DNA of 46,613 bases, taken from positions 1 to 46,613 of the IMG/VR virus record IMGVR_UViG_2565956710_000003; one strand, written 5' to 3'. Both the position numbers and the translations under genes were made by a program. The number at the start of each line of letters is the position of its first letter. The stretch's first letter is position 1. The notes beneath the pieces are model-generated. The model saw only the letters and a list, made by a program, of their open reading frames with translations. It made no database searches and was not told where the DNA came from. Below are positions 2,791 through 38,778 of the stretch, one piece after another. The stretch comes from a virus (taxonomy: Duplodnaviria > Heunggongvirae > Uroviricota > Caudoviricetes).

Positions 2791-3135
2791 TTAGTCCTTG
2801 CGTAGCTCGCTGATTCTTCTGTAAGTCTCTGGTGCTTTGTTTCCGTGTATCTTCATTTCAGACTTCAACAGAGCAACGAGAGAATCCCATTCGTTGAGGA
2901 TGCCTTTGAATGCCGGAACGCGCTTTGCAACCTTGTCGAATGAATCTCTGATTTCTGGAATCTGCTCAACAAGTGCAACGCATCGCCGAAAGTCTGCTGC
3001 GTCATGGGGAGCGCCGAAGTGATGACCATAGATATTCTTTTTCAGGCCACATGCGATTGAGGCAAGAGTTGCGCTACTGATTCCGACATCGCCAGTTGAT
3101 TGCCATTTCAAAACCTTCATAGCCAAATCTGACAT
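2791..3135 (-). CDS. Hypothetical protein (early-left accessory region)
   Basis: 114-aa ORF with a GGAGA Shine-Dalgarno 6 nt upstream of the ATG; same strand as the pL operon. Confidence 0.55.
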   Translation of the reverse strand: MSDLAMKVLKWQSTGDVGISSATLASIACGLKKNIYGHHFGAPHDAADFRRCVALVEQIPEIRDSFDKVAKRVPAFKGILNEWDSLVALLKSEMKIHGNKAPETYRRISELRKD

Positions 3136-3207
3136 TTCTTGTCTCCATAAAACAAAACCCGCCGTAGCGAGTTCAGATAAAAGAAATCCCCGCGAGTGCG
3201 AGGATTA

Positions 3208-3492
3208 TCATTCATTGCCGATATTTACCTTTATCGCGTATACCTTTACCGGTTTATCGCCGAAGTGGGGATGCGTGATTGTCTTGATTTCATATCCGTC
3301 ATAAGGGACGTCAATTCTGCGGCTGGAATCGTCGCGCTTCGGGTATCCCTTTGTGATAATCAGGCGGTCATACTCGCGTAACATAATTCGCTTATTCCAG
3401 TAGTCATTACACAGGCGATACTCTTCCGTTTTCTCTCCACGAATCATGGCATCGAAGTATTCACCTTTGACGGCAAGTTGCAGGTTAGTCAC
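3208..3492 (-). CDS. Hypothetical protein
   Basis: 94-aa ORF with a GTG start preceded by AGGAGG at 6-nt spacing; the longer ATG-start ORF would overlap the upstream gene by 46 nt. Confidence 0.5.
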   Translation of the reverse strand: MTNLQLAVKGEYFDAMIRGEKTEEYRLCNDYWNKRIMLREYDRLIITKGYPKRDDSSRRIDVPYDGYEIKTITHPHFGDKPVKVYAIKVNIGNE

Positions 3493-4228
3493 GGTTAACC
3501 TCCTGCGGCGGTTTTGCTGCAAAATGCGCAATACCTTTATCCCAGATGGATTTTATGGTCGTCCACGTGACTGGTACTTTAATTTCAATCCGCCCGCTAC
3601 CGTCACAGGTATCGCAATCATCATCGCCAAAGCATTCCGGGCAGCTTATAAACGTAGTTTCTGAAAATTCACCGGATAGCACACCCTTAGCGCCGTTCTC
3701 AGCGGTTAGTTTCTTCGGCACTATAACCCAACCATCCGGAGTTACCGGAGAGTTGCCACCGGGAATATTTTCCGGAATATTTTGTTGTGCGTTTTGTGGT
3801 TGTTCGGATTTACCATGAAGCATGGCGGCGCGGCAGGCGTTCCAGCCAGCTGTTCGCCCAAGCGCGTAAACTTCAGATGGCTCAAGATAATCAATGTCAT
3901 GCCCGTCCTCATCGTCGTTCTCAGGTAATGCAGCAGGTACTACCGGTACTGGCGGGGCGGTGTAAAGTGGAATAGCTTCTGTCTTGCACCCATCCCCCTT
4001 GCCGGGTGATAGTGGCGCAAGACACACCCGCCACGGGCCAATCTGCACACCGTCAAAAAGACTAGTAAGCCGCCATTTCCACGCTACAGGCTCTGCTTCC
4101 AGCGATGCCAGAGCAATTCGTGCCAGTTCTTCCGCTTCTTCTGCTGGCAGTACAACGTTGCTACCAGGTCCGTATGTTTCGCGCCACCGCTTGATTGTCA
4201 GTAGTCGCTCTTTGGTTATAGTGGTCAT
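3485..4228 (-). CDS. Hypothetical protein with C-terminal Cys-rich cluster (CPECFGDDDCDTCDGSG)
   Basis: 247-aa ORF in the pL operon orientation. Confidence 0.55.
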   Translation of the reverse strand: MTTITKERLLTIKRWRETYGPGSNVVLPAEEAEELARIALASLEAEPVAWKWRLTSLFDGVQIGPWRVCLAPLSPGKGDGCKTEAIPLYTAPPVPVVPAALPENDDEDGHDIDYLEPSEVYALGRTAGWNACRAAMLHGKSEQPQNAQQNIPENIPGGNSPVTPDGWVIVPKKLTAENGAKGVLSGEFSETTFISCPECFGDDDCDTCDGSGRIEIKVPVTWTTIKSIWDKGIAHFAAKPPQEVNRD

Positions 4229-12314: not shown

Positions 12315-13131
12315 ATGGGGTATGTCTCTATACACCGCCAGTTTATGGACAGCAGGCTCTATAAGGACTCTCAGGCAGTACATCTTTGGCTTCACTTAAT
12401 CCTCAAGGCTAATCACGAATCTACTGTCGTCAATACGGATATCGGTCCGATAACTGTTGATCGCGGTCAGATGATAACTGGACGCCCGTCGCTGGTCAGA
12501 GAAACATTCATCCCAGACAACAAAGTTCGGAGCTTATTACGGACTTTTGAGTCGAAAGGGATGCTTAATATTTGCTCGATGGGGAAGAAATTTAGCCTGT
12601 TTACAATCGTTAAATATGACGATTTTCAGGCAAAAAATTGTCCAACGGTTGTCCAACGGTTGTCCAACGCAAACACCAGTAATGGCGCGCCTCTCAGCGG
12701 AGATTGTCCAACGGTTGTCCAACGGTTGTCCATAAACAATAATATAAATAATATCTCTAATACTGACGTATTAGAGAGTGCCACAGCAGACAAAAAGTCT
12801 GACAAGAAAAAACCTTCCGTCAGCTGTCAGGATGTTGTCGATGCTTACCACGAAATCCTTCCTGAAGCGCCAAGAATCCGCGCACTGAATGACAAGCGTA
12901 AAAACCAGATCCGAACGTTCTGGCGCAAAGCCGGAGTGATAACCCGACAGCTTGACGGGCATGGTTTCACGATGCAGGACTGGAGAAATTATTTGAGCTA
13001 CGTAGGCGAAAATTGCCGATGGATGTTCGAAGAGCGCCCAAACCATCAACGCGGAACCGTCTGGCACAAAAAGGGATTTGATTTCCTGCTTAACGATAAT
13101 ACCTACCTGAAAGTTCGTGAGGGTGAACACG

Positions 13132-13142
<11 letters not shown>
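12315..13142 (+). CDS. Replication initiator (O-like, with internal origin iterons)
   Basis: ORF carrying two clusters of TTGTCCAACGG iterons and an AT-rich stretch; start chosen at the ATG with AGGAGG 8 nt upstream (an alternative start is at 12252). Confidence 0.7.
12638..12733. repeat. Origin iterons: two clusters of 11-bp TTGTCCAACGG repeats, followed by an AT-rich unwinding-like stretch
   Basis: Tandem units at 12638-12670 and 12704-12733 separated by 33 bp; AT-rich run 12733-12760 immediately after. Confidence 0.75.
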
Positions 13143-16527
<3,385 letters not shown>

Positions 16528-16602
16528 TGACCATCTACATCACTGAGCTTGTAACAGGCCTGCTGGTAATCGCAGGCCTTTTTATTTGGGGGAGAGTAAA
16601 TC

Positions 16603-17729: not shown

Positions 17730-17899
17730 TGCGATGTTATCGGTGCGGTGAATGCAAAGAAGATAACCGCTTCCGACCAAATCAACCTTACTGGAATCGA
17801 TGGTGTCTCCGGTGTGAAAGAACACCAACAGGGGTGTTACCACTACCGCAGGAAAAGGAGGATGTGTGGCGAGACAGCGACGAAGTATCACCGACATAA
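17726..17899 (+). CDS. Small Cys-rich (zinc-ribbon) nin-region protein
   Basis: 57-aa [19 protein letters not shown]...CLRCERTP; ATG overlaps the ninB stop (ATGA). Confidence 0.4.
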
Positions 17900-18042
17900 T
17901 CTGTGAAAACTGCAAATACCTTCCAACGAAACGCTCCAGAAATAAACGCAAGCCAATCCCAAAAGAATCTGACGTAAAAACCTTCAACTACACGGCTCAC
18001 CTGTGGGATATCCGGTGGCTAAGACATCGTGCGAGGAAATGA
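17866..18042 (+). CDS. Possible small basic protein (GTG start), uncertain
   Basis: 58-aa alternative-frame ORF with AAAAGGAGGA upstream; its stop overlaps the methyltransferase ATG; overlaps the previous small ORF. Confidence 0.25.
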
Positions 18043-18989
18043 CGATGACTGCGTATTACAACGAAATAGATCCGTATGCAGCGCAATGGCTGCGTAACTT
18101 AATTGACGCTGGAGAAATTGCCCCCGGTTATGTAGATGAAAGGAGTATTGAAGATGTCACACCAGGTGATTTGCGAGGATTTACCCAGCACCACTTTTTT
18201 GCAGGAATCGGAGTTTGGAGCTATGCACTTAGAAAAGCAGGATGGCCAGACAACAAGAGTATCTGGACAGGAAGTTGCCCATGCCAACCTTTCAGCTCGG
18301 CAGGCAAAGGAAAAGGGGTTGATGACGAGCGGCACTTATGGCCGGCATTCTTCTGGCTTATTGAAAAATGCAATCCTGGCATCGTTATTGGCGAACAGGT
18401 TGCAAGCGCAGACGGCCTCGCTTGGCTCGACCTTGTACAAACTGACTTGGAAGGTGCGAACTACACCTCTGCAGGTACCGATATTTGCGCTGCGGGCTTC
18501 GGTTCTCCGCACATCAGGCAGCGATTGTATTGGGTGGCCTACTCCAACGACAAATATCAACTTTCAGCCAGAAACGCGCAGGGGAATTCAGAACCTATCT
18601 GGATGCGTGAGACTAGCGGGATGGCAAACTCCTTTAGCGAACGATGCAACAGGTTCAACGCATTGCTACAGCGGAAAAGACAAGAGCGGAACCCCAAGAA
18701 TCTGCTTGAAACTTCCAGGGACGGTGAAGCCATGTACTCATTACCGGTTAACGGCTTCTGGAGAGATGCAGACTGGCTTTACTGTAGAGATGAAAAATAT
18801 CGTCCAGTTAGACCCGGCTCATTCCCGATGGTTAATGGCATTGCCAAAAGCTTGGGACGAGGCAAGTCCACACTGGGAGGAATGGCAAAGCGCAATCAAG
18901 ATCAGCGAATTATTGGATATGGAAACGCAATCAATGCAGAAGTAGCAACGGCATTCGTGAAAGTTTGTATGGAGGTTGTTAATGCTTAG
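18039..18989 (+). CDS. DNA cytosine-5 methyltransferase-like protein (orphan)
   Basis: 316-aa ORF with a PCQ catalytic motif ([12 protein letters not shown]) and a motif I-like FFAGIG segment; no adjacent restriction endonuclease gene. Confidence 0.6.
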
Positions 18990-19158
18990 CCTATCCCAAT
19001 CCCTTCAATACCAGAAAGAAAGCGTCGAGCGAGCTTTAACGTGCGCTAACTGCGGTCAGAAACTGCATGTGCTGGAAGTTCACGTGTGTGAGCACTGCTG
19101 CGCAGAACTGATGAGCGATCCGAATAGCTCAATGTACGAGGAAGAAGACGATGAATGA
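18982..19158 (+). CDS. ninF: NinF-like small zinc-binding protein
   Basis: 58-aa [50 protein letters not shown] with GGAGG 6 nt upstream. Confidence 0.7.
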   Translation: MLSLSQSLQYQKESVERALTCANCGQKLHVLEVHVCEHCCAELMSDPNSSMYEEEDDE

Positions 19159-21398: not shown

Positions 21399-21610
21399 TG
21401 ACCCAACGATGGATAAATGCACTCGTTAAATAAAGCCCTGAGTTAATAGCTCGGGGCTTTTTGCGTTTTAAGCACGGCCTTTCTGAAAGCACATCAAACC
21501 AAATACCAGACAGACAAAAATAATCACCTTATCCGCTGTGGCTACGGTGCGGTGTGCTTTGCATAAAAGAAAACCAGCGCAATGGCTGGCTTCGTGAAAG
21601 CGGGTGGCAA

Positions 21611-21640
21611 GAGGTTGCGCTAACAACCTCCTGCCGTTTT
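21611..21640 (+). terminator. tR'-like terminator ending the short late leader (6S-type) transcript
   Basis: Hairpin GAGGTTG-CGCTAA-CAACCTC followed by CTGCCGTTTT, roughly 200 nt downstream of pR'. Confidence 0.5.
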
Positions 21641-21760
21641 GCCCGTGCATATCGGTCACGAACAAATCTGATTACTAAACACAGTAGCCTGGATTTGTTC
21701 TATCAGTAATCGACCTTATTCCTAATTAAATAGAGCAAATCCCCTTATTGGGGGTAAGAC

Positions 21761-22084
21761 ATGAAGATGCCAGAAAAACATGACCTGTTAGCCGCCATTC
21801 TCGCGGCAAAGGAACAAGGCATCGGGGCAATCCTTGCGTTTGCAATGGCGTACCTTCGCGGCAGATATAATGGCGGTGCGTTTACAAAAACAGTAATCGA
21901 CGCAACGATGTGCGCCATTATCGCCTGGTTCATTCGTGACCTTCTCGACTTCGCCGGACTAAGTAGCAATCTCGCTTATATAACGAGCGTGTTCATCGGC
22001 TACATCGGTACTGACTCGATTGGTTCGCTTATCAAACGCTTCGCTGCTAAAAAAGCCGGAGTAGAAGATGGTGGAAATCAATAA
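21761..22084 (+). CDS. S: Holin S (dual-start motif MKM)
   Basis: 107-aa [61 protein letters not shown], lambda S. Confidence 0.95.
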
Positions 22085-22544
22085 TCAACGTAAGGCGTTC
22101 CTCGATATGCTGGCGTGGTCGGAGGGAACTGATAACGGACGTCAGAAAACCAGAAATCATGGTTATGACGTCATTGTAGGCGGAGAGCTATTTACCGATT
22201 ACTCCGATCACCCTCGCAAACTTGTCACGCTAAACCCCAGACTCAAATCAACAGCAGCAGGGCGTTACCAGCTTCTTTCCCGTTGGTGGGATGCTTACCG
22301 TAAACAGCTTGGTTTGAAAGACTTCTCCCCCAAAAGCCAGGACGCAGTGGCATTACAGCAGATTAAAGAGCGTGGTGCTTTACCGATGATTGATCGCGGT
22401 GATATCCGTCAGGCAATCGACCGTTGCAGCAATATCTGGGCTTCACTGCCGGGCGCTGGTTATGGTCAGTTCGAGCATAAGGCTGACAGCCTGATTGCAA
22501 AATTCAAAGAAGCTGGCGGAACGCTCAGAGAGAGTGAGGTATGA
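22068..22544 (+). CDS. R: Endolysin R (lytic transglycosylase)
   Basis: 158-aa [56 protein letters not shown], lambda R. Confidence 0.95.
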
Positions 22545-22978
22545 GCAGAATAACCGCGATTATCTCCGCTCTGGTTATCTGCATCATCGTCTGCCTGTTA
22601 TGGGCTGTTAATCATTACCGTGATAACGCCATCGCCTACAAAGAACAGCGCGACAAAGCCACGTACATCATCGCTGACATGCAGAAGCGTCAACGTGATG
22701 TAGCAGAACTCGACGCCAGATACACAAAGGAGCTTGCTGATGCTAACGCGACTATCGAAAGTCTCCGTGCTGATGTTTCTGCTGGTCGTAAGCGCCTGCA
22801 AGTCGCCGCCACCTGTGCAAAGTCAACGACCGGAGCCAGCAGCATGGGCGATGGAGAAAGCCCAAGACTTACAGCAGATGCTGAACTCAATTATTACCGT
22901 CTCCGAAGTGGAATCGACAAGATAACCGCGCAGGTTAACTACCTGCAGGAGTACATCAGGACTCAGTGCCTGAAATAA
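22541..22978 (+). CDS. Rz: Spanin inner-membrane subunit Rz
   Basis: 145-aa ORF with an N-terminal transmembrane segment [30 protein letters not shown] and a coiled-coil periplasmic domain. Confidence 0.9.
22734..22925 (+). CDS. Rz1: Spanin outer-membrane lipoprotein Rz1 (embedded in the +1 frame of Rz)
   Basis: Embedded ORF with lipobox LLVVSAC and a Pro-rich mature segment [13 protein letters not shown]. Confidence 0.7.
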
Positions 22979-23009
22979 TTTTTTTGCAAATCACAAAGTC
23001 CATTTAATG

Positions 23010-23034
23010 AGCCTCGCGATGCGGGGCTTTTTTT
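23010..23034 (+). terminator. Rho-independent terminator after the lysis cassette
   Basis: Hairpin AGCCTCGC-GAT-GCGGGGCT followed by TTTTTTT. Confidence 0.7.
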
Positions 23035-23183
23035 ACATCTGAATTTCACAGCGCATCTCACGCGCATATTACATCACCCGAGCCTTTCAGAAAGTTGAGC
23101 CTGAGAACTGCCGTATATGGTGGCGACCATCTCGGGGCGGCTTTTCTGTGAGACAGGCTCACTTTCTAAAAGGTAAAGACGCT

Positions 23184-23702
23184 ATGAATCATCAATTGGC
23201 TAATCTCGATTTCCGGGACATGGTGGTTGTTTCTGGTGACCGCGTGATCACAACCTCCCGCAAGGTAGCAGCTTACTTCGACAAGCAGCATCACCACATC
23301 ATTCAGAAAATCGAAAAGCTAGACTGTTCGGATGAATTTCTAACCAGCAACTTTTCGCGGGTTACCTATGAACACAAGGGTAATCAGTATGTTGAATATG
23401 AAATTTCCAAAGACGGCGCGATGTACATCATCATGTCGTTTACCGGCAAAAAAGCTGCCGCCATCAAAGAGGCGTTTATCAAAGCATTTAATTGGATGCG
23501 TGACAGGCTGATGGAGATGGCTCACTCATACCAAAGAGAGCACAACGAGTTAATGCTGGAGTTCATGAAGGAAAAGGATGTTGCCAGTATGTCAGGACGC
23601 TTGCTGAACCGCTGGGGCAGGATCAAAAAACCGCAACTCATAGCAAGAATCGAAAGGCTTGAGCAGCAGGCGCAAATATCGATCCCCGGACTGCCAAAGT
23701 GA
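23184..23702 (+). CDS. Rha-family phage regulatory protein
   Basis: About 172 aa from MNHQLANLDF; the segment RVITTSRKVAAYFDKQHHHIIQKIEKL...YIIMSFTGKKAAAIKEAFIKAFNWM is typical of the Rha family. Confidence 0.6.
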   Translation: MNHQLANLDFRDMVVVSGDRVITTSRKVAAYFDKQHHHIIQKIEKLDCSDEFLTSNFSRVTYEHKGNQYVEYEISKDGAMYIIMSFTGKKAAAIKEAFIKAFNWMRDRLMEMAHSYQREHNELMLEFMKEKDVASMSGRLLNRWGRIKKPQLIARIERLEQQAQISIPGLPK

Positions 23703-23998
23703 CCATTCCAAAGCCCATCTACGGGTGGGCTTGATAATGAAACCGGAGTTAATTTCTGGTCACCAATTAACGGCAGTACCACGTAGCAACCCAAGCCAGT
23801 AAGTGGGGGAAATAACACTGGCAGCCACTGAAAGATGAACATCCTGCCTTATGGCAAAAAAGATTCTTTGTGGTGGCGGACTGATGGAAAGACATCGGTT
23901 ATTGCAGAGACCATTCAATGAGTGGTCTCGACAATGGCTTATACCCTGCACGGGATAACTTAACTGATATCCCTTTTAACGGATAAACGGAGCCAACA

Positions 23999-24241
23999 AT
24001 GGCAGAGATTATTCCCATGACTGAAGAACAGAAATTCCAGTTAGAGATTTACAAACTGGTCATGAACCAGAACGCAGCCGCAGAGGAAGCATTTCAATTC
24101 ATTGGTACTGACGAACTGAAGCTTGAGCTATTCAAAATTCACTTCCAGTCAGGCGGCGCTAATTCAGATATCACGACCCGCACTATCGAAGCGGTGCGTA
24201 AATCGAAGGAAGCGTTAGACCTGTTCACTACCGGAGCATAA
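23999..24241 (+). CDS. Small hypothetical protein upstream of terS
   Basis: 80-aa ORF in the late operon orientation. Confidence 0.4.
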   Translation: MAEIIPMTEEQKFQLEIYKLVMNQNAAAEEAFQFIGTDELKLELFKIHFQSGGANSDITTRTIEAVRKSKEALDLFTTGA

Positions 24242-24320
24242 ACATGGCAACTCAAGGTTTCGACAACCCATCCAAATTCCGCGATGAATGGGATAAGCAA
24301 GCAGAAGGGAAATAATCAAT

Positions 24321-24746
24321 ATGGCGACTGAGAAAAAGAATGTCGGTCGCCCTTCGGATTACCTGCCGGAGGTGGCTGATGATATCTGTGCGCTGCTTGC
24401 CTCCGGGGAAAGTCTGGTTAAGGTTTGCAAGCGCCCCGGCATGCCAGCAAAGGCTACTGTATTTCGCTGGCTGTCAGAGCATGACGAATTTAGAGACAAG
24501 TACGCGAAGGCAACTGAGGCGCGAGCTGATTCTATTTTCGAAGAGATATTCGAAATTGCTGACACTGCGATTCCAGATGCTGCTGAGGTGGCAAAGGCAA
24601 GACTTCGCGTTGATACCCGCAAATGGGCGCTGGCCAGAATGAATCCCCGTAAGTATGGCGACAAGGTAACTAACGAGCTTGTCGGTAAAGACGGCGGTGC
24701 AATCCAGATTGAAACATCACCGATGAGTACTCTATTCGGAAAATGA
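24321..24746 (+). CDS. Terminase small subunit (P22/Sf6-type)
   Basis: 141-aa ORF immediately upstream of, and overlapping, the large terminase. Confidence 0.7.
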   Translation: MATEKKNVGRPSDYLPEVADDICALLASGESLVKVCKRPGMPAKATVFRWLSEHDEFRDKYAKATEARADSIFEEIFEIADTAIPDAAEVAKARLRVDTRKWALARMNPRKYGDKVTNELVGKDGGAIQIETSPMSTLFGK

Positions 24747-26155
24747 CCTCGATTAATCCTATCTTTGAACCGTTCATTGAGGCGCATCGCTACAAAGTCG
24801 CCAAAGGCGGTCGAGGTAGCGGTAAGTCATGGGCAATTGCGAGGCTGCTTGTTGAAGCGGCGCGCCGGCAGCCTGTGCGTATTCTCTGCGCTCGTGAACT
24901 GCAAAACAGTATCAGCGATTCGGTAATCCGGTTGCTTGAAGACACCATAGAGCGGGAAGGGTATTCGGCTGAGTTTGAAATTCAGCGTTCAATGATTCGT
25001 CATCTCGGAACGAATGCTGAATTCATGTTCTACGGCATAAAAAACAACCCGACGAAGATTAAATCGCTCGAAGGTATTGATATCTGCTGGGTGGAGGAAG
25101 CGGAAGCGGTAACGAAGGAATCATGGGATATCCTGATACCAACCATCCGCAAGCCGTTTTCCGAAATATGGGTGAGTTTCAACCCTAAGAACATCCTCGA
25201 CGATACCTATCAGCGATTCGTTGTAAATCCTCCCGATGATATTTGCCTGCTGACGGTGAACTACACCGACAATCCGCACTTTCCTGAAGTTCTCCGTCTG
25301 GAGATGGAAGAGTGTAAACGCAGAAATCCGACACTGTATCGTCACATCTGGCTTGGTGAGCCAGTAAGCGCAAGTGATATGGCAATCATCAAACGTGAAT
25401 GGCTTGAAGCCGCAACCGATGCGCACAAGAAACTCGGATGGAAAGCGAAAGGCGCTGTTGTCTCTGCGCATGATCCATCAGATACAGGGCCAGATGCTAA
25501 AGGTTATGCATCGCGTCACGGTTCGGTAGTTAAGCGCATTGCCGAAGGTCTGCTGATGGACATCAACGAGGGGGCTGACTGGGCTACTTCGCAGGCGATT
25601 GAAGACGGTGCTGACCACTACTTGTGGGATGGTGATGGTGTCGGTGCAGGGCTACGCAGACAGACAACGGAAGCGTTCTCCGGTAAGAAAATCACCGCCA
25701 CGATGTTCAAGGGCAGCGAATCGCCATTCGATGAAGATGCACCATATCAGGCCGGAGCATGGGCTGATGAAGTCGTGCAGGGCGACAACGTTCGCACTAT
25801 TGGCGATGTGTTCCGCAATAAGCGAGCGCAATTTTATTACGCGCTGGCTGACAGGCTGTATCTGACATATCGGGCGGTTGTCCACGGTGAGTATGCAGAC
25901 CCCGACGACATGCTGAGTTTCGACAAAGAAGCGATAGGCGAGAAGATGCTGGAGAAGCTGTTTGCAGAACTGACGCAGATTCAGCGCAAATTCAATAACA
26001 ACGGGAAGCTGGAGCTAATGACTAAGGTCGAAATGAAGCAGAAGCTCGGTATTCCATCTCCTAACCTGGCTGATGCGCTGATGATGTGTATGCATTGCCC
26101 GGCATTGGTCCGCGAAGAAACAGAAATATACGTTCCCTCATCCTCCGGTTGGTAA
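24743..26155 (+). CDS. Terminase large subunit
   Basis: 470-aa ORF with Walker A AKGGRGSGKSWA and a C-terminal nuclease-type domain. Confidence 0.9.
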   Translation: MTSINPIFEPFIEAHRYKVAKGGRGSGKSWAIARLLVEAARRQPVRILCARELQNSISDSVIRLLEDTIEREGYSAEFEIQRSMIRHLGTNAEFMFYGIKNNPTKIKSLEGIDICWVEEAEAVTKESWDILIPTIRKPFSEIWVSFNPKNILDDTYQRFVVNPPDDICLLTVNYTDNPHFPEVLRLEMEECKRRNPTLYRHIWLGEPVSASDMAIIKREWLEAATDAHKKLGWKAKGAVVSAHDPSDTGPDAKGYASRHGSVVKRIAEGLLMDINEGADWATSQAIEDGADHYLWDGDGVGAGLRRQTTEAFSGKKITATMFKGSESPFDEDAPYQAGAWADEVVQGDNVRTIGDVFRNKRAQFYYALADRLYLTYRAVVHGEYADPDDMLSFDKEAIGEKMLEKLFAELTQIQRKFNNNGKLELMTKVEMKQKLGIPSPNLADALMMCMHCPALVREETEIYVPSSSGW

Positions 26156-26157
26156 AC

Positions 26158-28284
26158 ATGGCAGAGACATTAGAGAAAAAACATGAGCGGATCATGCTCA
26201 GGTTTGACCGCGCCTATTCTCCACAGCAGGAAGTGCGCGAAAAGTGCATTGAAGCTACGAGGTTTGTTCGTGTCCCCGGAGGTCAATGGGAAGGAGCAAC
26301 GGCGGCTGGGACTAAGCTTGATGAGCAGTTCGAGAAGTATCCTAAGTTTGAAATCAATAAGGTGGCAACTGAACTTAACCGCATCATTGCAGAATACCGC
26401 AATAACAGAATCACCGTTAAGTTTCGTCCTGGTGACAGAGAGGCAAGCGAAGAGTTAGCCAATAAATTAAATGGTCTGTTCCGTGCTGACTACGAAGAAA
26501 CTGATGGCGGTGAGGCTTGCGATAATGCATTTGACGACGCTGCTACTGGTGGTTTCGGTTGCTTCCGTTTGACGTCGATGCTGGTCAATGAATACGACCC
26601 CATGGACGATCGTCAGCGTATTGCTATTGAACCAATATACGACCCGTCGCGCTCTGTGTGGTTTGACCCTGACGCTAAGAAGTACGACAAATCTGACGCG
26701 TTGTGGGCGTTCTGCATGTATTCGTTGTCACCTGAAAAATATGAGGCTGAATACGGAAAGAAACCTCCTGCTTCTCTGGATGTAACGTCTATGACCAGTT
26801 GGGAATATGACTGGTTTGATGCAGATGTTATTTACATAGCGAAGTATTACGAAGTTCGTAAAGAGTCTGTTGACGTTATCAGTTATCAACATCCAATCAC
26901 TGGAGAGATTGCAACATACGACAGTGATCAGGTTGAAGATATTGAAGATGAACTGGCAATAGCTGGATTTCATGAAGTGGCAAGGCGCTCAGTGAAGCGC
27001 CGTCGTGTGTATGTATCCGTAGTGGATGGTGATGGTTTCCTTGAGAAACCTCGACGTATTCCTGGTGAACATATCCCCCTCATCCCGGTTTATGGAAAAC
27101 GCTGGTTCATTGATGACATTGAGCGTGTCGAAGGGCACATTGCAAAAGCAATGGATCCACAGCGTTTGTACAACCTTCAGGTTTCAATGCTGGCTGATAC
27201 TGCAGCGCAAGACCCCGGTCAGATCCCTATAGTTGGCATGGAGCAAATTCGTGGACTTGAGAAGCACTGGGAGGCTCGCAACAAGAAACGTCCAGCGTTC
27301 TTGCCGTTGCGCGAAGTGAGAGATAAATCTGGCAACATTATCGCTGGAGCTACCCCAGCAGGATATACACAGCCTGCGGTTATGAATCAGGCATTGGCTG
27401 CATTACTACAGCAAACCAGCGCAGATATTCAGGAGGTTACAGGCGGCAGTCAGGCCATGCAGCAGATGCCAAGTAATATTGCTCAGGAAACGGTTAACAA
27501 CTTGATGAACAGAGCAGATATGGCTTCGTTTATCTATCTGGACAATATGGCGAAAAGTCTTAAACGCGCTGGTGAAGTATGGCTGTCAATGGCGCGTGAA
27601 GTGTACGGTTCAGAACGTGAAGTGCGCATCGTTAACGAAGATGGAAGTGATGATATCGCTGTCCTGAGCGCACAGGTTGTTGACAGGCAAACAGGGGCTG
27701 TTGTTGCGTTAAATGACCTTTCTGTCGGTCGATACGATGTGACGGTTGATGTTGGACCAAGCTACACAGCACGACGTGATGCAACGGTTTCTGTACTGAC
27801 AAATGTCCTTAGCTCTATGCTTCCAACAGACCCAATGCGCCCGGCAATTCAGGGTATTATTCTGGACAATATCGATGGCGAAGGCCTTGATGACTTCAAA
27901 GAGTACAACCGAAACCAACTGCTGATATCTGGTATTGCAAAACCACGCAATGAGAAAGAGCAGCAGATTGTTCAACAGGCGCAAATGGCAGCACAAAGCC
28001 TGCCAAATCCTGAAATGGTTCTCGCTCAGGCGCAAATGGTAGCAGCGCAGGCAGAAGCGCAAAAAGCAACTAACGAAACCGCTCAAACTCAAATCAAAGC
28101 ATTTACTGCCCAGCAGGATGCGATGGAGAGCCAGGCAAACACTGTCTATAAACTGGCTCAAGCCAGAAACATCGATGACAAAGCAGTGATGGAGGCAATA
28201 CGCCTTCTGAAAGATGTCGCCGAGTCACAACAACAGCAATTCCAGTCACCACCACAGTCACCGGCAGACTTAATGCCGAGTTAA
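26158..28284 (+). CDS. Portal protein (P22 gp1-like)
   Basis: 708-aa protein from MAETLEKKHERIMLRF; large size and position after terL; Gln-rich C-terminal region. Confidence 0.85.
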   Translation: MAETLEKKHERIMLRFDRAYSPQQEVREKCIEATRFVRVPGGQWEGATAAGTKLDEQFEKYPKFEINKVATELNRIIAEYRNNRITVKFRPGDREASEELANKLNGLFRADYEETDGGEACDNAFDDAATGGFGCFRLTSMLVNEYDPMDDRQRIAIEPIYDPSRSVWFDPDAKKYDKSDALWAFCMYSLSPEKYEAEYGKKPPASLDVTSMTSWEYDWFDADVIYIAKYYEVRKESVDVISYQHPITGEIATYDSDQVEDIEDELAIAGFHEVARRSVKRRRVYVSVVDGDGFLEKPRRIPGEHIPLIPVYGKRWFIDDIERVEGHIAKAMDPQRLYNLQVSMLADTAAQDPGQIPIVGMEQIRGLEKHWEARNKKRPAFLPLREVRDKSGNIIAGATPAGYTQPAVMNQALAALLQQTSADIQEVTGGSQAMQQMPSNIAQETVNNLMNRADMASFIYLDNMAKSLKRAGEVWLSMAREVYGSEREVRIVNEDGSDDIAVLSAQVVDRQTGAVVALNDLSVGRYDVTVDVGPSYTARRDATVSVLTNVLSSMLPTDPMRPAIQGIILDNIDGEGLDDFKEYNRNQLLISGIAKPRNEKEQQIVQQAQMAAQSLPNPEMVLAQAQMVAAQAEAQKATNETAQTQIKAFTAQQDAMESQANTVYKLAQARNIDDKAVMEAIRLLKDVAESQQQQFQSPPQSPADLMPS

Positions 28285-28297
28285 CCAGGAGTAATCA

Positions 28298-29182
28298 ATG
28301 GAAAACGAACTGATCATCGACGGTCAGGTTATTGACCTGTCTGAAACACAGGAAAATGCAGAAGAAACCATCATCCAAACAGAGTCACAGCCTGAGAATG
28401 AAAGCCAGGATGACAACGGAAAAGAGATGGCAACTGATCCTGAAAAAACCGAAGAGACACCAGAAGATTACGCCTTGCGTATTGGTGATGAAGAAATTCA
28501 GCTTAACGCTGACGATGATGATCACATTGACGGGCAACCTGCACCGCAATGGGTGAAAGATCTTCGCAAAGGCTTCAAAGAAACACAGAAAGAAAACCGT
28601 GAGTTGCGCCGCCAGCTTGAGGAAGCATTAGCCAAGCCTGCGGAACATCAGCAACCACAACCAGACGCTATTCCACCAAAACCGACTCTTGAGTCGTGTG
28701 ATTATGACGAACAGGCGTTTGAACAGGCATTGACTGATTGGCATGAGAAAAAAGGCCGTGTCGAACAGCAGCAGCAACAAAAAATACGTCAGCAACAGGA
28801 ATACCAACAGCGTTTCCAGCAAAGGGTAGAAGCGCATAAACAACGGGCAGCCAAACTTCCTGTGAAAGATTATCAGGAAATGGAGGCCATTGTTCTTAGT
28901 GAGCTACCACCAATTCAGCAGGAAATCATCATTCACTGTGCAGACGAAGGCTCTGAACTACTCGCCTATGGATTAGGTAAGAGCCAGCAATTACGCCAGC
29001 GTGTAGCCGCTGAGACAGATCCAATTCGCGCAGCATTCCTCTTGGGGCAGATTAGCAAACAGGTAAGCCTTGCTCCAAAACCAAAGAAAGCCATCAAGCC
29101 AGAGCCGGAAGTACGCGGTGGCGGTGCTGATGCGAAACAAGACGAATTCAACAAATTATGCCCCGGCGCAAAAATCGAATAA
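28298..29182 (+). CDS. Scaffolding protein
   Basis: 294-aa highly charged, Gln/Glu-rich helical protein between portal and coat (P22 gp8 position). Confidence 0.8.
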   Translation: MENELIIDGQVIDLSETQENAEETIIQTESQPENESQDDNGKEMATDPEKTEETPEDYALRIGDEEIQLNADDDDHIDGQPAPQWVKDLRKGFKETQKENRELRRQLEEALAKPAEHQQPQPDAIPPKPTLESCDYDEQAFEQALTDWHEKKGRVEQQQQQKIRQQQEYQQRFQQRVEAHKQRAAKLPVKDYQEMEAIVLSELPPIQQEIIIHCADEGSELLAYGLGKSQQLRQRVAAETDPIRAAFLLGQISKQVSLAPKPKKAIKPEPEVRGGGADAKQDEFNKLCPGAKIE

Positions 29183-29193
29183 GGAAAAGATAA

Positions 29194-30465
29194 ATGCCTA
29201 ACAATCTCGACAGTAACGTCAGTCAAATCGTTCTGAAAAAATTCCTTCCGGGTTTTATGTCAGATTTAGTTCTGGCGAAAACCGTAGACCGTCAGTTGCT
29301 GGCAGGTGAAATCAACTCCAGCACTGGCGATAGCGTTAGCTTTAAACGTCCGCATCAATTCTCATCCCTCCGTACTCCCACTGGTGATATTTCAGGGCAA
29401 AATAAAAACAACCTGATCTCAGGTAAAGCTACGGGGCGTGTAGGTAACTACATAACTGTTGCTGTTGAATATCAGCAACTGGAGGAAGCGATCAAGCTTA
29501 ACCAACTGGAGGAAATTCTCGCGCCGGTTCGCCAGCGAATCGTTACCGACCTTGAAACAGAGCTTGCTCACTTCATGATGAATAACGGTGCGTTGTCACT
29601 TGGTAGCCCCAATACTCCAATCACCAAATGGTCTGATGTTGCGCAGACGGCATCTTTCCTGAAAGACCTCGGCGTTAATGAAGGTGAAAACTATGCTGTA
29701 ATGGATCCATGGTCTGCACAGCGACTTGCTGATGCGCAGACTGGTTTGCACGCTTCAGATCAATTGGTTCGTACTGCATGGGAGAATGCGCAAATCCCAA
29801 CCAATTTTGGCGGCATTCGCGCACTGATGTCTAATGGGCTTGCCTCTCGTACGCAGGGGGCATTTGGCGGAACACTGACAGTCAAAACACAGCCAACTGT
29901 TACCTATAACGCAGTTAAAGACTCATACCAGTTCACTGTAACATTGACCGGAGCGACAACCAGCGTTACAGGTTTCCTGAAAGCTGGTGATCAGGTTAAA
30001 TTCACCAATACCTACTGGCTGCAACAGCAGACCAAACAGGCGTTGTATAACGGAGCCACACCAATTAGCTTCACTGCAACGGTTACTGCTGATGCTGATT
30101 CAGACGGCAGTGGCGATGTGACGGTTACGCTTTCTGGTGTTCCGATTTATGACACTACAAACCCGCAGTACAACTCTGTAAGTCGTCAGGTAGCGGCAGG
30201 CGATGCCGTATCTGTAGTAGGCACTGCTAGCCAGACAATGAAGCCAAACCTGTTCTATAACAAGTTCTTCTGTGGACTTGGCTCTATTCCACTGCCGAAA
30301 CTGCACAGTATTGATTCTGCTGTTGCAACATATGAAGGTTTCTCCATCCGCGTACATAAATACGCAGATGGCGATGCCAACGTGCAAAAAATGCGCTTCG
30401 ACTTACTGCCTGCATATGTGTGCTTTAACCCTCACATGGGCGGTCAGTTCTTCGGTAATCCGTAA
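29194..30465 (+). CDS. Major coat protein (Sf6/P22-type)
   Basis: 423-aa ORF following the scaffold gene, followed by a strong terminator. Confidence 0.85.
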   Translation: MPNNLDSNVSQIVLKKFLPGFMSDLVLAKTVDRQLLAGEINSSTGDSVSFKRPHQFSSLRTPTGDISGQNKNNLISGKATGRVGNYITVAVEYQQLEEAIKLNQLEEILAPVRQRIVTDLETELAHFMMNNGALSLGSPNTPITKWSDVAQTASFLKDLGVNEGENYAVMDPWSAQRLADAQTGLHASDQLVRTAWENAQIPTNFGGIRALMSNGLASRTQGAFGGTLTVKTQPTVTYNAVKDSYQFTVTLTGATTSVTGFLKAGDQVKFTNTYWLQQQTKQALYNGATPISFTATVTADADSDGSGDVTVTLSGVPIYDTTNPQYNSVSRQVAAGDAVSVVGTASQTMKPNLFYNKFFCGLGSIPLPKLHSIDSAVATYEGFSIRVHKYADGDANVQKMRFDLLPAYVCFNPHMGGQFFGNP

Positions 30466-30469
30466 TAAC

Positions 30470-30496
30470 AAGGGGCTTACGCCCCTTTTATGTTTT
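30470..30496 (+). terminator. Rho-independent terminator after the coat gene
   Basis: Hairpin AAGGGGC-TTAC-GCCCCTT followed by TTTATGTTTT. Confidence 0.75.
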
Positions 30497-30507
30497 AAGG
30501 AAACAAT

Positions 30508-30693
30508 ATGGATCGCATGAGTGTATTCCTTGCCGCAGATAACGAATCCGGGCATGTACAGGCCGTTATCGCAGAAAAAGACTTCCAGTTTTTCGAAAAG
30601 TTGGGCTTTGTTGCCTCAGTTGATGAATTGAAACCGACCAGTAAGCGAGGTCGTAAGGCGGCGGACAATGGCAACAGTACTGACAAAGGGTGA
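30508..30693 (+). CDS. Small hypothetical virion-module protein
   Basis: 61-aa ORF between the coat and gp4-like genes. Confidence 0.4.
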   Translation: MDRMSVFLAADNESGHVQAVIAEKDFQFFEKLGFVASVDELKPTSKRGRKAADNGNSTDKG

Positions 30694-31150
30694 GATCGTC
30701 ATTTTTGCGCTTCGTAAGTTTGCTATTGCTTCTAATGCATCGCTTACTGATGTTGAGCCGCAATCAATTGAAGATGGTGTAAATGATCTGGAAGATATGA
30801 TGTCCGAGTGGATGATTAACCCCGGCGACATTGGTTACGCTTTCGCAACTGGAGATGAGCAGCCATTACCAGATGATGAGTCAGGTCTTCCAAGAAAATA
30901 CAAACACGCAGTAGGCTATCAGTTATTGCTGAGAATGCTATCTGATTACAGCCTTGAACCAACTCCGCAAGTTCTCAGTAACGCCCAACGCTCATATGAT
31001 GCCTTGATGACCGACACTCTGGTTGTTCCTTCAATGCGACGACGTGGAGATTTTCCTGTAGGGCAGGGTAATAAATATGACGTGTTCACATCTGACCGAT
31101 ATTATCCAGGCGATCTCCCTCTGATTGATGGCGATATCCCAAACGCATAG
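30668..31150 (+). CDS. Head-completion / tail accessory protein (P22 gp4-like)
   Basis: 160-aa ORF; N-terminus ...ALRKFAIASNASLTDVEPQS resembles P22 gp4 (recalled). Confidence 0.7.
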   Translation: MATVLTKGEIVIFALRKFAIASNASLTDVEPQSIEDGVNDLEDMMSEWMINPGDIGYAFATGDEQPLPDDESGLPRKYKHAVGYQLLLRMLSDYSLEPTPQVLSNAQRSYDALMTDTLVVPSMRRRGDFPVGQGNKYDVFTSDRYYPGDLPLIDGDIPNA

Positions 31151-31158
31151 GTGAATAA

Positions 31159-32577
31159 ATGCCTATTCAGCAACTTCCGCTTATGAAAGGTGTCGGCAAA
31201 GACTTTCGAAACGCCGACTATATCGACTATCTGCCAGTGAATATGCTGGCTACGCCCAAAGAAATACTCAACAGCAGCGGATATATTCGCTCATTCCCGG
31301 GCATTGCCAAACGCTCTGATGTGAACGGTGTATCGCGAGGCGTCGAGTACAACATGGCGCAGAGTGCTGTGTATCGCGTGTGTGGTGGGAAGCTGTACAA
31401 AGGAGAAAGTGAAGTCGGTGATGTTGCCGGAAGTGGTCGAGTATCAATGGCTCATGGTCGGACATCACAGGCGGTAGGTGTTAATGGTCAACTGGTCGAG
31501 TATCGCTATGATGGCACGGTTAAAACCGTCTCAAACTGGCCTACAGACAGTGGATTCACGCAGTATGAGTTAGGTTCGGTACGCGACATTACACGCTTAC
31601 GTGGCCGTTATGCGTGGTCAAAAGACGGTACTGATTCATGGTTTATCACTGACCTTGAAGACGAATCGCATCCTGACCGTTACAGCGCACAATATCGCGC
31701 AGAATCGCAGCCGGACGGTATCCTCGGCATCGGAACATGGCGAGACTTCATCGTCTGCTTTGGTTCATCGACGATTGAATATTTCTCCCTGACTGGTGCA
31801 ACCACCGTTGGTGCAGCTTTGTATGTCGCACAGCCATCACTGATGGTGCAGAAAGGCATCGCCGGGACTTACTGCAAAACGCCATTCGCTAATTCTTATG
31901 CGTTCATCAGCAATCCGGCAACAGGTGCGCCGTCTGTGTATATCATCGGCTCCGGTCAGGTGTCACCAATCGCCAGCGCGAGCATTGAGAAAATTCTCCG
32001 CTCCTACACTGCTGATGAACTGGCTGATGGCGTGATGGAATCGTTACGGTTTGATGCTCATGAGTTGCTGATTATTCACCTGCCGCGCCACGTCCTTGTG
32101 TACGACGCATCTTCAAGCGCCAATGGTCCGCAATGGTGTGTGCTGAAAACAGGCCTGTATGACGATGTGTACCGCGCTATCGACTTCATTTACGAAGGCA
32201 ATCAGATAACGTGCGGCGATAAGCTGGAATCGGTGACCGGGAAATTGCAGTTCGATATCAGCAGTCAGTATGGTCTTCAACAGGAACACTTGCTGTTTAC
32301 TCCACTGTTCAAAGCGGATAACGCCAGATGCTTCGACCTTGAGGTTGAATCGTCAACTGGCGTTGCGCAGTACGCTGACCGCCTGTTCCTCTCTGCTACC
32401 ACTGACGGCATAAATTACGGGCGTGAGCAGATGATTGAGCAGAATGAACCGTTCGTTTACGACAAGCGCGTTTTGTGGAAGCGAGTAGGGCGCATCAGGA
32501 AAAATGTCGGTTTCAAATTGCGCGTTATCACGAAGTCACCTGTCACTCTGTCTGGCTGCCAGATAAGGATTGAGTAA
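31159..32577 (+). CDS. Tail accessory protein (P22 gp10-like)
   Basis: 472-aa ORF in the gp10 position and of gp10 size. Confidence 0.7.
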
Positions 32578-33530
32578 TGGCTGATTCGAATCTCAATGAG
32601 CCGGTAATCATTCAGGCTACGCGGCTCGATACATCAGTCCTTCCGCGTAATATCTTCTCGCAGTCGTATCTGCTTTACGTTATCGCACAGGGCACTGATG
32701 TTGGTAACGTGGCTAACAAGGCCAACGAAGCAGGGAAGGGGGCTTATGATGCACAGGTGAAGAATGATGAGCAGGATGTCACCCTTGCAGACCATGAATC
32801 CAGAATTGAAGCTGCTGAAGCAACTCTCATCAATCATGAACATAGAATTGCAGCAGCGGAAAGCACTCTTGCAGATCATGAAACAAGGATTACGGCTGCT
32901 GAAACAGAGCTGGCTGATCACGAGACGCGAATTGCTGCCAATGAATCTGAGTTAGCAAACCATGATGCGCGCATAACTCAGAATACAACCGATATCGACG
33001 CACTTGATACCAGGCTCACAGCGGCAGAAGGAAGTATTTCGACGCTACAAAGCACAGTTGGTGATCACTCAACAAGAATATCTGCGCTTGAGTATGCCAC
33101 CACGCGCAAGAAATCAGAGGTTGTTTACTCAGGAGTATCGGTAACAATTCCGACAGCGCCGACCAACCTTGTTAGCCTGCTGAAAACGCTCACGCCGTCA
33201 TCCGGCACGTTGGCACCATTCTTCGACACCGTTAACAACAAGATGGTTGTGTTCAACGAGAACAAAACCCTGTTCTTCAAGCTGTCGATTGTCGGGACGT
33301 GGCCCAGCGGAACCTCCAACAGGTCAATGCAGCTAACATTTTCCGGTTCTGTACCTGACACACTGGTAAGCAGTCGTAACTCGGCGACAACAACCGACAA
33401 CATCCTGTTAGCTACGTTCTTCAGCGTGGATAAAGACGGCTTTCTTGCCACAAATGGCAGTACGTTAACCATTCAGTCAAATGGTGCGGCGTTTACTGCC
33501 ACAACTATCAAGATAATCGCGGAGCAGTAA
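32577..33530 (+). CDS. Tail needle (P22 gp26-like) with C-terminal knob domain
   Basis: 317-aa ORF with tandem heptad repeats (LADHETRI type) forming a trimeric coiled coil, plus a C-terminal globular extension. Confidence 0.75.
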
Positions 33531-33985
33531 TGATTCAGTTCAAACCAACGCGAAACATCGACCTGATCGAAGCAGTCGGAAATCACCCTGACATTATTGC
33601 CGGGAGCAACAACGGTGATGGATACGACTACAAACCTGATTGCCGTTACTTTGAGGTGAACGTGCACGGGCAGTTCGGCGGCATTGTTTACTATCAGGAG
33701 ATTCAGCCGCTGACATTCGATTGCCACGCCATGTACCTGCCAGAGGTTCGTGGATTCAGCAAGGAAATCGGGCTGGCGTTCTGGCGATACATTCTGACTA
33801 ACACCACCGTTCAGTGCGTCACATCGTTCGCTGCGCGCAAATTCCGCCACGGGCAGATGTACTGCGCAATGATTGGCCTTAAGCGTGTAGGAACCATCAA
33901 GAAATACTTCAAAGGCGTGGATGACGTGACTTTTTACAGCGCCACACGCGAAGAACTAATCGACTTCCTGAATCACGGGAGATAG
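33530..33985 (+). CDS. Virion assembly protein (P22 gp14-like position)
   Basis: 151-aa ORF between the needle and ejection-protein genes. Confidence 0.5.
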   Translation: MIQFKPTRNIDLIEAVGNHPDIIAGSNNGDGYDYKPDCRYFEVNVHGQFGGIVYYQEIQPLTFDCHAMYLPEVRGFSKEIGLAFWRYILTNTTVQCVTSFAARKFRHGQMYCAMIGLKRVGTIKKYFKGVDDVTFYSATREELIDFLNHGR

Positions 33986-33987
33986 CC

Positions 33988-34683
33988 ATGTTACATGCAT
34001 TTAAGCTGGGCAGAAAACTGCGCGGCGAGGAACCTTATTGCCCTGAAAAAGGCGGGAAAGGTGGCAGTTCTGATAAAAGCGCAAAGTATGCAGCAGAAGC
34101 TCAGAAGTATGCCGCAGACCTGCAAAATCAGCAGTTCAACACCATCATGAACAACCTGAAGCCGTTTACTCCTCTGGCTGATAAGTATGTCGGCAGCCTC
34201 GAGAACTTATCGTCTCTGGAAGGGCAAGGTCAGGCACTTAACCAGTATTACAACTCTCAGCAGTACAAAGATCTTGCTGGCCAGGCTCGCTATCAGAGTC
34301 TGGCGGCAGCGGAAGCAACAGGTGGATTGGGTTCCACTGCAACCGGTAATCAGTTAGCAACAATCGCACCAACGCTTGGTCAGCAATGGCTATCTGGTCA
34401 GATGAACAACTACCAGAATCTGGCAAATATTGGTCTTGGTGCGCTGCAAGGTCAGGCAAACGCCGGGCAGACATATGCCAACAACATGAGTCAGATTTCG
34501 CAGCAAAGTGCGGCTCTTGCAGCGGCAAATGCCAACAGACCATCAGCAATGCAATCTGCTATTGGCGGAGGTGCGTCTGGTGCTATTGCTGGGGCTGGAC
34601 TTGCGAAATTAATTGGTTCATCAACTCCGTGGGGGGCTGGTATCGGTGCTGGTATCGGTCTGCTTGGTTCACTGCTTTATTAA
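33988..34683 (+). CDS. Ejection protein (P22 gp7-like)
   Basis: 231-aa Gln/Ala/Gly-rich protein with a hydrophobic C-terminus; first of three ejection-protein genes by position. Confidence 0.6.
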   Translation: MLHAFKLGRKLRGEEPYCPEKGGKGGSSDKSAKYAAEAQKYAADLQNQQFNTIMNNLKPFTPLADKYVGSLENLSSLEGQGQALNQYYNSQQYKDLAGQARYQSLAAAEATGGLGSTATGNQLATIAPTLGQQWLSGQMNNYQNLANIGLGALQGQANAGQTYANNMSQISQQSAALAAANANRPSAMQSAIGGGASGAIAGAGLAKLIGSSTPWGAGIGAGIGLLGSLLY

Positions 34684-34693
34684 GGGGTAATCA

Positions 34694-38369: not shown

Positions 38370-38399
38370 ACCAACCTCCTTAGTTTTGAGCAGGATACC

Positions 38400-38765: not shown

Positions 38766-38778
38766 CCCGGCTTGATTA

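Follow-up and report, generated by a model that had tools for sequence, protein, structure and literature searches.

A predicted orphan cytosine-5 methyltransferase with a displaced cofactor-binding motif and a repeat array at the target-recognition position in the nin region of a lambdoid prophage

Does the open reading frame (ORF) lodged between ninE and ninF in the viral record IMGVR_UViG_2565956710_000003, whose whole 46,613-nucleotide stretch we call the window, encode a working DNA cytosine-5 (C5) methyltransferase (MTase), and, if so, how does a protein with seemingly divergent motifs bind its cofactor and read its DNA? An earlier note, made from the letters of the window alone, had described here a 316-aa ORF with a PCQ motif; counting from the ATG at 18039, the ORF, its PCQ (the GSCPCQPFS-containing stretch quoted there spans residues 78-89) and a downstream GEQV (residues 118-121) are found just as it described them. 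Our analysis of the sequence and of its modeled fold indicates that the gene encodes a DNA C5-MTase of a large phage-borne subfamily, PHROG 363, which is probably active. [quoted passage not shown]

The MTase assignment is far beyond chance as judged by profile comparisons. The protein exceeds the PF00145 gathering threshold of 22 bits with a score of 53 (E=4.5e-14), the match being confined to profile positions 64-213, and it matches PHROG 363 over its full length (E=6.2e-92; residues 1-315 on profile positions 7-317 of 327). Its homologues in databases number more than 8000, and one of them, an NCBI protein of 100% identity, is labeled “DNA cytosine methyltransferase”. M.HhaI is the first match in a phmmer search (8e-7; residues 70-172 against 70-175), and a profile of the family improves this to 2e-16. 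In two AlphaFold2 models the catalytic half is confidently predicted, with a predicted local distance difference test score (pLDDT) of 83-94 across most of residues 1-170; the catalytic domain can be overlaid on C5-MTases of solved structure, and all the best structural matches are enzymes of this kind. Thus, the comparison of motifs and structures that the earlier note had asked for bears out its C5-MTase-like label in both sequence and fold. The family is also very large: when the N-terminal 125 residues were searched against 1.84 billion representatives of clusters at 50% identity, 2849 clusters were recovered at E<=1e-30, and 3874 when the limit was relaxed to E<=1e-10. The best 150 of these are colinear with the query at their own N-termini at 69-82% identity, with total lengths ranging from 135 to 706 aa, and the family as a whole occurs in phages with many different hosts, temperate as well as virulent.

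All the catalytic elements of C5-MTases can be recognized in an alignment of 105 family members. In motif IV, P81-C82-Q83 is invariant and aligns with P80-C81-Q82 of M.HhaI; in motif VI, E119 aligns with the M.HhaI E119; in motif VIII, H158-I-R160-Q-R162 aligns with the M.HhaI Q161-K-R163-E-R165, with both arginines invariant; and near the C-terminus the GN(A/S)V signature of motif X is represented by an invariant G295-N296-A297-I298. The invariant set comprises N8, E9, D33, F54, G56, G58, P81, C82, Q83, G118, E119, Q120, V121, R160, R162, G295, N296 and A297. The loss of key catalytic residues, named in the earlier note as what would refute an MTase, is thus not seen. Indeed, the catalytic and cofactor-binding residues are also kept in distant homologues from the Kagunavirus K1ind1, the Eiauvirus eiAU and a Vequintavirus. 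Measured against four phage homologues, the ratio of nonsynonymous to synonymous substitution rates (dN/dS) comes to about 0.2 in residues 1-170 and to 0.35-0.6 in the remainder of the protein, and the catalytic half is, by this measure, under purifying selection. The same note was right that GEQV stands where ENV is expected, and it took this for divergence; because G118-E119-Q120-V121 is invariant in the 105 members, the catalytic glutamate is kept and the region is under purifying selection, EQV is, on the evidence of the alignment, a fixed trait of the family and not decay.

Two relatives appear to have problematic annotations in their own records. In the Cylindrospermopsis phage Cr-LKS3 (OM373202.1), which was reported from a cyanobacterium, a lambdoid early-right module comprises replication protein O, a DnaB-type helicase, NinB, a PHROG 363-family MTase (47.5% identity), RusA and Q. 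The annotated coding sequence of this MTase (3128..3865) omits about 40 N-terminal residues and is probably mis-started, since a tblastn match extends over the omitted residues. The Escherichia phage K1ind1 (NC_041897.1) has two overlapping “DNA methyltransferase” coding sequences, of which only 2995..3819 matches the family protein, and 3083..3775 looks like an annotation artefact.

In canonical C5-MTases motif I (FxGxG) and helix A come first, followed by motif II, with its acidic residue after strand 2, then by motif III and then by motif IV with the PCQ. In the PHROG 363 protein this order is not observed: a motif II-like segment occupies residues 5-17, a motif III-like segment residues 31-40, motif I residues 46-69 and motif IV residues 78-86. 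The FFAGIG loop itself (residues 53-58) was correctly spotted as motif I-like in the earlier note but is not at the head of the protein where it had been placed, lying instead behind the motif II- and III-like segments, and the PCQ follows 13 residues after the motif I/helix A unit. By alignment with M.HhaI, E9 is presumed to be the ribose-binding acid, and we infer that residues 31-40 correspond to motif III.

Several independently built profiles respond to this arrangement. With hhalign, residues 43-171 of the family align with M.HhaI 7-174, skipping M.HhaI 33-70, and a weak second match places residues 5-18 on M.HhaI 36-49. An hmmsearch with the family profile against M.HhaI yields three permuted local matches, in which profile positions 37-67, 3-14 and 73-167 correspond to M.HhaI 3-33, 36-47 and 74-172, respectively. 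Curated hidden Markov models take alternative paths through the region: the PF00145 match starts only at profile position 64, and TIGR00675 treats the FFAGIG segment as an insert. When we un-permuted the protein in silico by moving residues 46-69 to the N-terminus, the PF00145 score rose from 53 to 74 bits and the match grew to profile positions 5-214. Control constructs, in which the 5-45 segment was deleted, reversed or shuffled, gave 53.5-66.1 bits, and one with a shuffled 46-69 segment gave 65.7 bits. The un-permuted construct likewise scores higher than the native order does on at least 10 independent canonical C5-MTase profiles of PADLOC (e.g., 53.2 to 72.4, 60.9 to 68.3 and 31.3 to 46.2 bits), and its alignments begin at profile position 8-10; along those same profiles M.HhaI runs colinear. 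The PADLOC alignment of the native protein from residue 38 had raised the separate idea that DruM shares the displaced motif I; it was rejected, given the colinearity of M.HhaI with the profiles and the higher score of the un-permuted construct.

As far as sequence can show, then, the motif I/helix A unit comes after the motif II-III unit throughout the family. The AlphaFold2 strands preceding the PCQ (5-8, 30-33, 50-53 and 75-78) and the helices (12-23 and 57/59-66) give the same count of elements as in M.HhaI. The usual Rossmann-type sheet would thus be retained, with its strands differently connected. The rearrangement would accordingly be described as a local, non-circular transposition of the strand-1/helix-A unit with the strand-2/strand-3 unit. 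We found no description of such a local transposition in the part of the literature accessible to us, including the 2025 topology classification of Samokhina & Alexeevski, which recognizes only class C and class F for 5-methylcytosine (m5C) enzymes, and the survey of Jurkowski and Jeltsch, which mentions only the DRM permutation.

The second departure is found between motif VIII and a conserved segment close to the C-terminus. Here the family carries a variable region spanning 45 to 355 aa, which is built of tandem units of about 35 aa, each with a head of the form G-[LVM]-A-[DN]-[AT]-x3-[GR]-R and a tail rich in G/R/E/S/A. In 53 representatives we counted 85 unit heads as against 4.6 +/- 2.1 in shuffled sequences, with a modal spacing of 30-39 aa. 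Relatives from Kagunavirus, with overall identities of 57-96%, differ mainly by the gain or loss of units, their lengths being 264, 274, 309-314, 340 and 354-359 aa. Residues 170-236 of the window protein are 95.5% identical to the family member P0002, with the catalytic half at only 71.6%, and this disparity indicates, at the level of sequence comparison, recombinational exchange of the variable cassette. Beyond it lies a hairpin-like segment in which W241, D243, W246, C249, D251, R255 and P263 are invariant across the 105-sequence alignment, and R250, P256, V257, E258 and G260 nearly so. It could possibly be a shortened motif IX or a DNA-contact element; its resemblance to motif IX is limited to a short RPVxPGxFP segment. 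The following basic segment (residues 268-292) is found in a single sub-branch of the family, where its consensus reads ARFAKSLGHGKSSLRAMAGRNRTGRL; others lack it, P0002, eiAU and K1ind1 among them. If the family shares a DNA-contact element, the W241...R255 hairpin would be the likeliest candidate, which in turn would suggest a short or relaxed target sequence. The units of about 35 aa may be miniature specificity modules, by analogy with Bacillus phage MTases, or else non-specific DNA-binding arms or linkers.

Taking these two departures together, we offer only tentatively, as an idea that may well prove wrong, that PHROG 363 represents a topologically distinct class of C5-MTases, in which the SAM-loop unit has been swapped with the strand-2/strand-3 unit, and exchangeable low-complexity units of about 35 aa along with an invariant hairpin have replaced the folded TRD, setting or relaxing specificity. 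Such an enzyme would give phages a compact m5C “master key” to restriction, one that is either rapidly re-tuned or promiscuous.

The genomic setting of the gene (Table 1) bears on when such an enzyme would be made. An entire lambdoid prophage lies within the window, inserted at the lambda attB site, with the late genes being HK620/Sf6-like (about 96% identity over 56% of 21500..44800); it is a P22-like, HK620/Sf6-like lambdoid prophage of E. coli. The early-right gene order is lambda-like: CI, replication genes, NinB, NinE, the MTase, NinF, Roi/Ant, YbcO, RusA and Q. Homology to phage lambda stops at 18039 and restarts at 19016, and the MTase gene is therefore a 976-bp cassette. Matches to the flanks alone, lacking the MTase gene, occur in 400+ phage records. 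Among 5426 complete E. coli genomes the gene is found in 11 at >=99% identity, in each case flanked by NinE and NinF, with the other neighboring modules varying between carriers: in NZ_AP022095 the downstream neighbors are an HNH and a hypothetical gene, and a comparison of helicases reveals a different replication module in that prophage. In the window, an IS21-family insertion sequence (IS) at about 13.41-15.33 kb, with the inverted ends GTGATCCAC / GTGGATCAC, sits between pR and the nin region and splits a DnaB-type replicative helicase gene, as shown by the Pfam domains on either side. This prophage is thus probably replication-defective.

Promoter-like sites are at the level of chance (3 found against 3.0 expected), with none placed to drive the MTase gene, which lies downstream of a tR2-like hairpin in the pR operon. 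Because there is no promoter above chance, the gene overlaps both ninE and ninF, and a tR2-like terminator is found upstream, it is predicted to be expressed with the pR/N-antiterminated delayed-early operon, mainly after induction. Of the two roles that the earlier note had entertained, protection of phage DNA from restriction and altered host methylation in lysogens, these same features leave the second the weaker. Orphan MTases can have regulatory roles, and the intactness of the gene in the 11 E. coli genomes would be compatible with an epigenetic regulator, expressed from the resident prophage, that changes host cytosine methylation and gene expression. We nevertheless regard such a regulator as unlikely: besides the absence of a suitably placed promoter, the gene is coupled by overlap to ninE/ninF behind a terminator-like hairpin in a repressed operon, and most family members occur in virulent phages or in lytic modules beside replication genes. 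Moreover, prophage MTases are reported to be often silent in lysogens, as in ST131, for which transcriptional silence was described (PMC4659465).

Hence, the explanation that we consider probable is that the gene codes for a solitary SAM-dependent DNA C5-MTase of altered architecture, whose lytic expression protects phage DNA. Transcription from pR, once N antitermination has set in, would take in the gene together with the nin genes, to which it would also be coupled in translation, and the enzyme, made during lytic growth, would methylate the replicating phage DNA, such that the progeny DNA is protected from m5C-sensitive restriction enzymes in the next host. Based on the conserved residues and the M.HhaI paradigm, Cys82 is predicted to attack C6 of the flipped cytosine, Glu119 to protonate N3, and Arg160 and Arg162 to hold O2 and the backbone. 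SAM would be held by the FFAGIG loop, Glu9 and the acidic residue after the second strand, and Asn296 of motif X would favor methyl rather than carboxymethyl transfer. DNA recognition would proceed without a canonical folded TRD, probably through the W241...R255 hairpin and one or more of the G/R/E-rich units of about 35 aa.

Several points weigh against this explanation. The second residue of the motif VI ENV is a Gln, invariant in the family. The match to TIGR00675 (dcm) reaches 42.9 bits, below its cut-off of 100.65, with residues 6-185 falling on profile positions 25-177, and the motif I part of that profile is therefore unmatched at the N-terminus. Residues 174-295 have a pLDDT below 50 in two AlphaFold2 runs, the second of which used 105 more diverse sequences, leaving the DNA-binding half and motif IX without support from the model. 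In the literature, to the extent that it was accessible, we found no report, experimental or from methylomes, of m5C produced by this enzyme or any member of its family, and no PHROG 363 protein appears to have been characterized. Finally, lytic-cycle use of this copy of the gene may be compromised by the IS21-family insertion. The low TIGR00675 score, the unmodeled C-terminal half and the damage to the prophage would also fit an inactive relic or pseudo-enzyme, in which EQV, HxRxR, the displaced motif I and the missing folded TRD mark a lost capacity for DNA methylation. A relic is, in our estimate, quite improbable, as it sits poorly with the invariance of the catalytic and SAM-binding residues in the 105 sequences and in distant phage genera, the dN/dS of about 0.2 over residues 1-170, and the thousands of family clusters, which include those of virulent phages under strong selection on genome size.

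A solitary active C5-MTase might also have been conceived as a hypermodification enzyme with a cofactor other than SAM, along the lines of CmoX (PDB 8yf3), another phage-encoded protein with the C5-MTase fold and the top-ranked structural match of the window protein, which would synthesize 5-carboxymethylcytosine with carboxy-SAM (Cx-SAM) from the host CmoA. CmoX is defined by an SPPC motif and by Arg350, which binds the carboxylate of Cx-SAM, and CmoA and CmoY usually accompany it (PMC12783734). The window protein has SCPCQ instead of SPPC and an invariant Asn296 where CmoX needs Arg350 (the M.HhaI Asn304 position), and neither a CmoA nor a CmoY-like ligase was detected among the ORFs scanned. 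CmoX, M.HhaI and M.HaeIII cannot be told apart by the structural scores, and by sequence 8yf3 is only weakly matched (2e-5, profile positions 98-171 only). Judging from these residues, the protein is not a CmoX-type carboxymethyltransferase, and we give such a role little credence.

The orphan status claimed for the gene likewise held up. Pfam and PADLOC scans of the neighbors and of most other prophage ORFs detected no restriction endonuclease, Vsr or defense protein, and PADLOC in particular gave no match on any neighbor of the gene; no partner from a restriction-modification (R-M) or defense system emerged among the ORFs covered. The adjacent cognate endonuclease that marks a Type II R-M system is not observed, the flanking genes being ninE and ninF, with YbcO, RusA and Roi also standard lambdoid nin genes. 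Other family members adjoin helicases, polymerases or replication proteins, and their neighbors differ between carriers. That the gene is the modification half of an R-M or defense system, such as a Druantia-type DruM with its partner elsewhere in the prophage, is the least probable reading of all, for although the DruM and MTase_II models of PADLOC match the catalytic core (60.9 bits at best) and a “putative nuclease”, YbcO, is encoded 0.9 kb downstream, these are partial matches to generic C5-MTase features (M.HhaI scores 175 bits on the same DruM model), no neighbor matches a PADLOC model, the Druantia type II partners DruE/F/G are missing, YbcO belongs to the standard nin set, and NZ_AP022095 and other carriers have different neighbors.

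Table 1. Coordinates in the window of the MTase gene, its protein motifs and the surrounding prophage features
Feature	Coordinates	Strand	Remarks
Orphan DNA cytosine-5 MTase ORF	18039..18989	+	316 aa from ATG 18039; 314 aa from ATG 18045
Shine-Dalgarno-like GAGGA	18033..18037	+	Read off the sequence; 1 nt from ATG 18039, 7 nt from ATG 18045
Motif II-like strand and helix, residues 5-17	18051..18089	+	Compare M.HhaI VYSNEWDKYAQEV (residues 36-48); N8, E9 invariant
Motif III-like second strand and acidic residues, residues 31-40	18129..18158	+	V32, D33, R35, S36, I37 invariant
Displaced motif I (FxGxG SAM loop) and helix A, residues 46-69	18174..18245	+	Aligns with M.HhaI residues 7-32, including LTGLRFIDLFAGLGGFRLALESCG (residues 9-32)
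Motif IV GSCPCQPFS, residues 78-86	18270..18296	+	Predicted nucleophile Cys82
Motif VI IGEQVA, residues 117-122	18387..18404	+	EQV for ENV; Glu119 aligns with M.HhaI Glu119
Motif VIII SPHIRQRL, residues 156-163	18504..18527	+	HxRxR versus canonical QxRxR; R160, R162 invariant
Hypervariable low-complexity region at TRD position, residues 170-236	18546..18746	+	pLDDT <50
Single ~38-aa repeat unit ending DGEA, residues 194-231	18618..18731	+	
Conserved hairpin-like segment, residues 237-267	18747..18839	+	AlphaFold2 strands 246-248 and 254-256, low confidence
Extra basic segment between conserved hairpin and motif X, residues 268-292	18840..18914	+	
Motif X GYGNAI, residues 293-298	18915..18932	+	Asn296 read as the M.HhaI Asn304 counterpart by motif correspondence (GYGNAI versus FGNSV)
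ninE	17866..18042	+	PF05322, 3e-45; stop overlaps MTase ATG 18039 (ATGA)
ninF	18982..19158	+	PF05810; ATG 18982 overlaps MTase stop by 8 nt
Accessory cassette, 976 bp relative to phage lambda	18040..19015	+	Replaces 33 bp of the lambda ninE/ninF junction
Terminator-like hairpin and T-run, tR2-like position upstream of nin genes	16556..16579	+	Pattern match only
IS21-family element IstA/IstB	13465..15266	-	IstB 13465..14247, IstA 14244..15266
DnaB N-terminal domain ORF	13117..13455		Pfam
DnaB_C ORF	15319..16527		Pfam; TTG “start” inside the IS end
Integrase, lambda-type, with lambda Int arm-binding domain	1419..2489	-	
ybhC-like pectinesterase gene, left flank	1..1284	-	
ybhB-like gene of the phosphatidylethanolamine-binding protein (PEBP) family, right flank	44898..45374	-	

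The limits of the gene itself admit some refinement. On the + strand the reading frame is open from a GTG at 18003 to 18989, with the TAG stop at 18987..18989. Among the possible starts the ATG at 18045, giving a protein of 314 aa, is the likelier one because of its 7-nt spacing from GAGGA, the choice of this second ATG by the NCBI annotation pipeline PGAP for the identical gene in NZ_AP022095, and the consensus MTAYYNEID at the N-termini of the family, which fits a start at this position. The base composition, with a GC content of 0.45-0.52, is unremarkable. A 269-aa ORF in another frame (18136..18945, +) lies wholly within the MTase gene, and nothing marks it as a gene. Just beyond the right prophage end, an IS605-family OrfB/TnpB gene with OrfB_IS605, Cas12f1-like TNB and helix-turn-helix domains begins at 45483 and runs off the window (45483..46613, +).

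An orphan phage MTase gene is in itself routine, and identical proteins are already listed in RefSeq under the name “DNA cytosine methyltransferase”. What holds interest is the family, with its rearranged SAM-binding unit and, at the DNA-reading position, an unstructured-looking, recombining repeat array of variable copy number. Thus, the gene is ordinary and its architecture a modest curiosity that we did not find described in the accessible literature. If the enzymes are active, they would imply that the Rossmann core of C5-MTases tolerates a natural non-circular rewiring and that target recognition is possible without a canonical TRD. A possibly short or promiscuous specificity would further matter for the host range of phages, for the way in which phage therapy candidates (Kagunavirus, Vequintavirus and Klebsiella phages) evade restriction, and for m5C signals in the methylomes of E. 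coli and Salmonella.

Among the closest known systems are the canonical monospecific enzymes M.HhaI and M.HaeIII (PF00145), which match in catalytic-domain fold and belong to topology class C of Samokhina & Alexeevski. The likeness to M.HhaI extends residue-for-residue over residues 70-172 to the PCQ, the motif VI Glu, the RxR and the GN, and the FxGxG loop and the motif II acid are also present. The differences are that, in the window protein, the motif I/helix A unit is placed between motifs III and IV instead of at the N-terminus, EQV replaces ENV and HxRxR replaces QxRxR, the motif IX helix appears shortened, low-complexity repeats take the position of a folded TRD with its T-L core, and no restriction endonuclease accompanies the gene. 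A non-canonical motif order is likewise seen in the circularly permuted C5-MTases, namely the zeta or class F enzymes M.BssHII and M2.Eco31I and the plant DRM proteins. There, however, the whole domain is circularly permuted, with the TRD or motifs IX-X coming first, or motifs VI-X preceding I-V, whereas the window protein has motif X at its C-terminus (293-298) and motifs IV-VIII in canonical order, and thus does not belong with them.

A different parallel is offered by the multispecific C5-MTases of the Bacillus phages SPR, phi3T and rho11s, orphan enzymes that protect against restriction and carry tandem modules of about 40-50 aa in variable number. In those enzymes the motifs follow the canonical order, and every module folds as a TRD of separate specificity; unlike these modules, the units of about 35 aa in the present family combine a short head with a G/R/E/S-rich tail and are not modeled as folded. 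In genomic placement and presumed role the gene resembles the orphan MTases of other lambdoid prophages, such as the Dam-like M.EcoMIV or the M.EcoGI-type enzymes of E. coli prophages, which are also accessory genes of the early or nin regions, often silent in lysogens and presumed to protect against restriction. These are N6-adenine enzymes of unrelated sequence classes, whereas the enzyme encoded in the window is predicted to act on C5 of cytosine.

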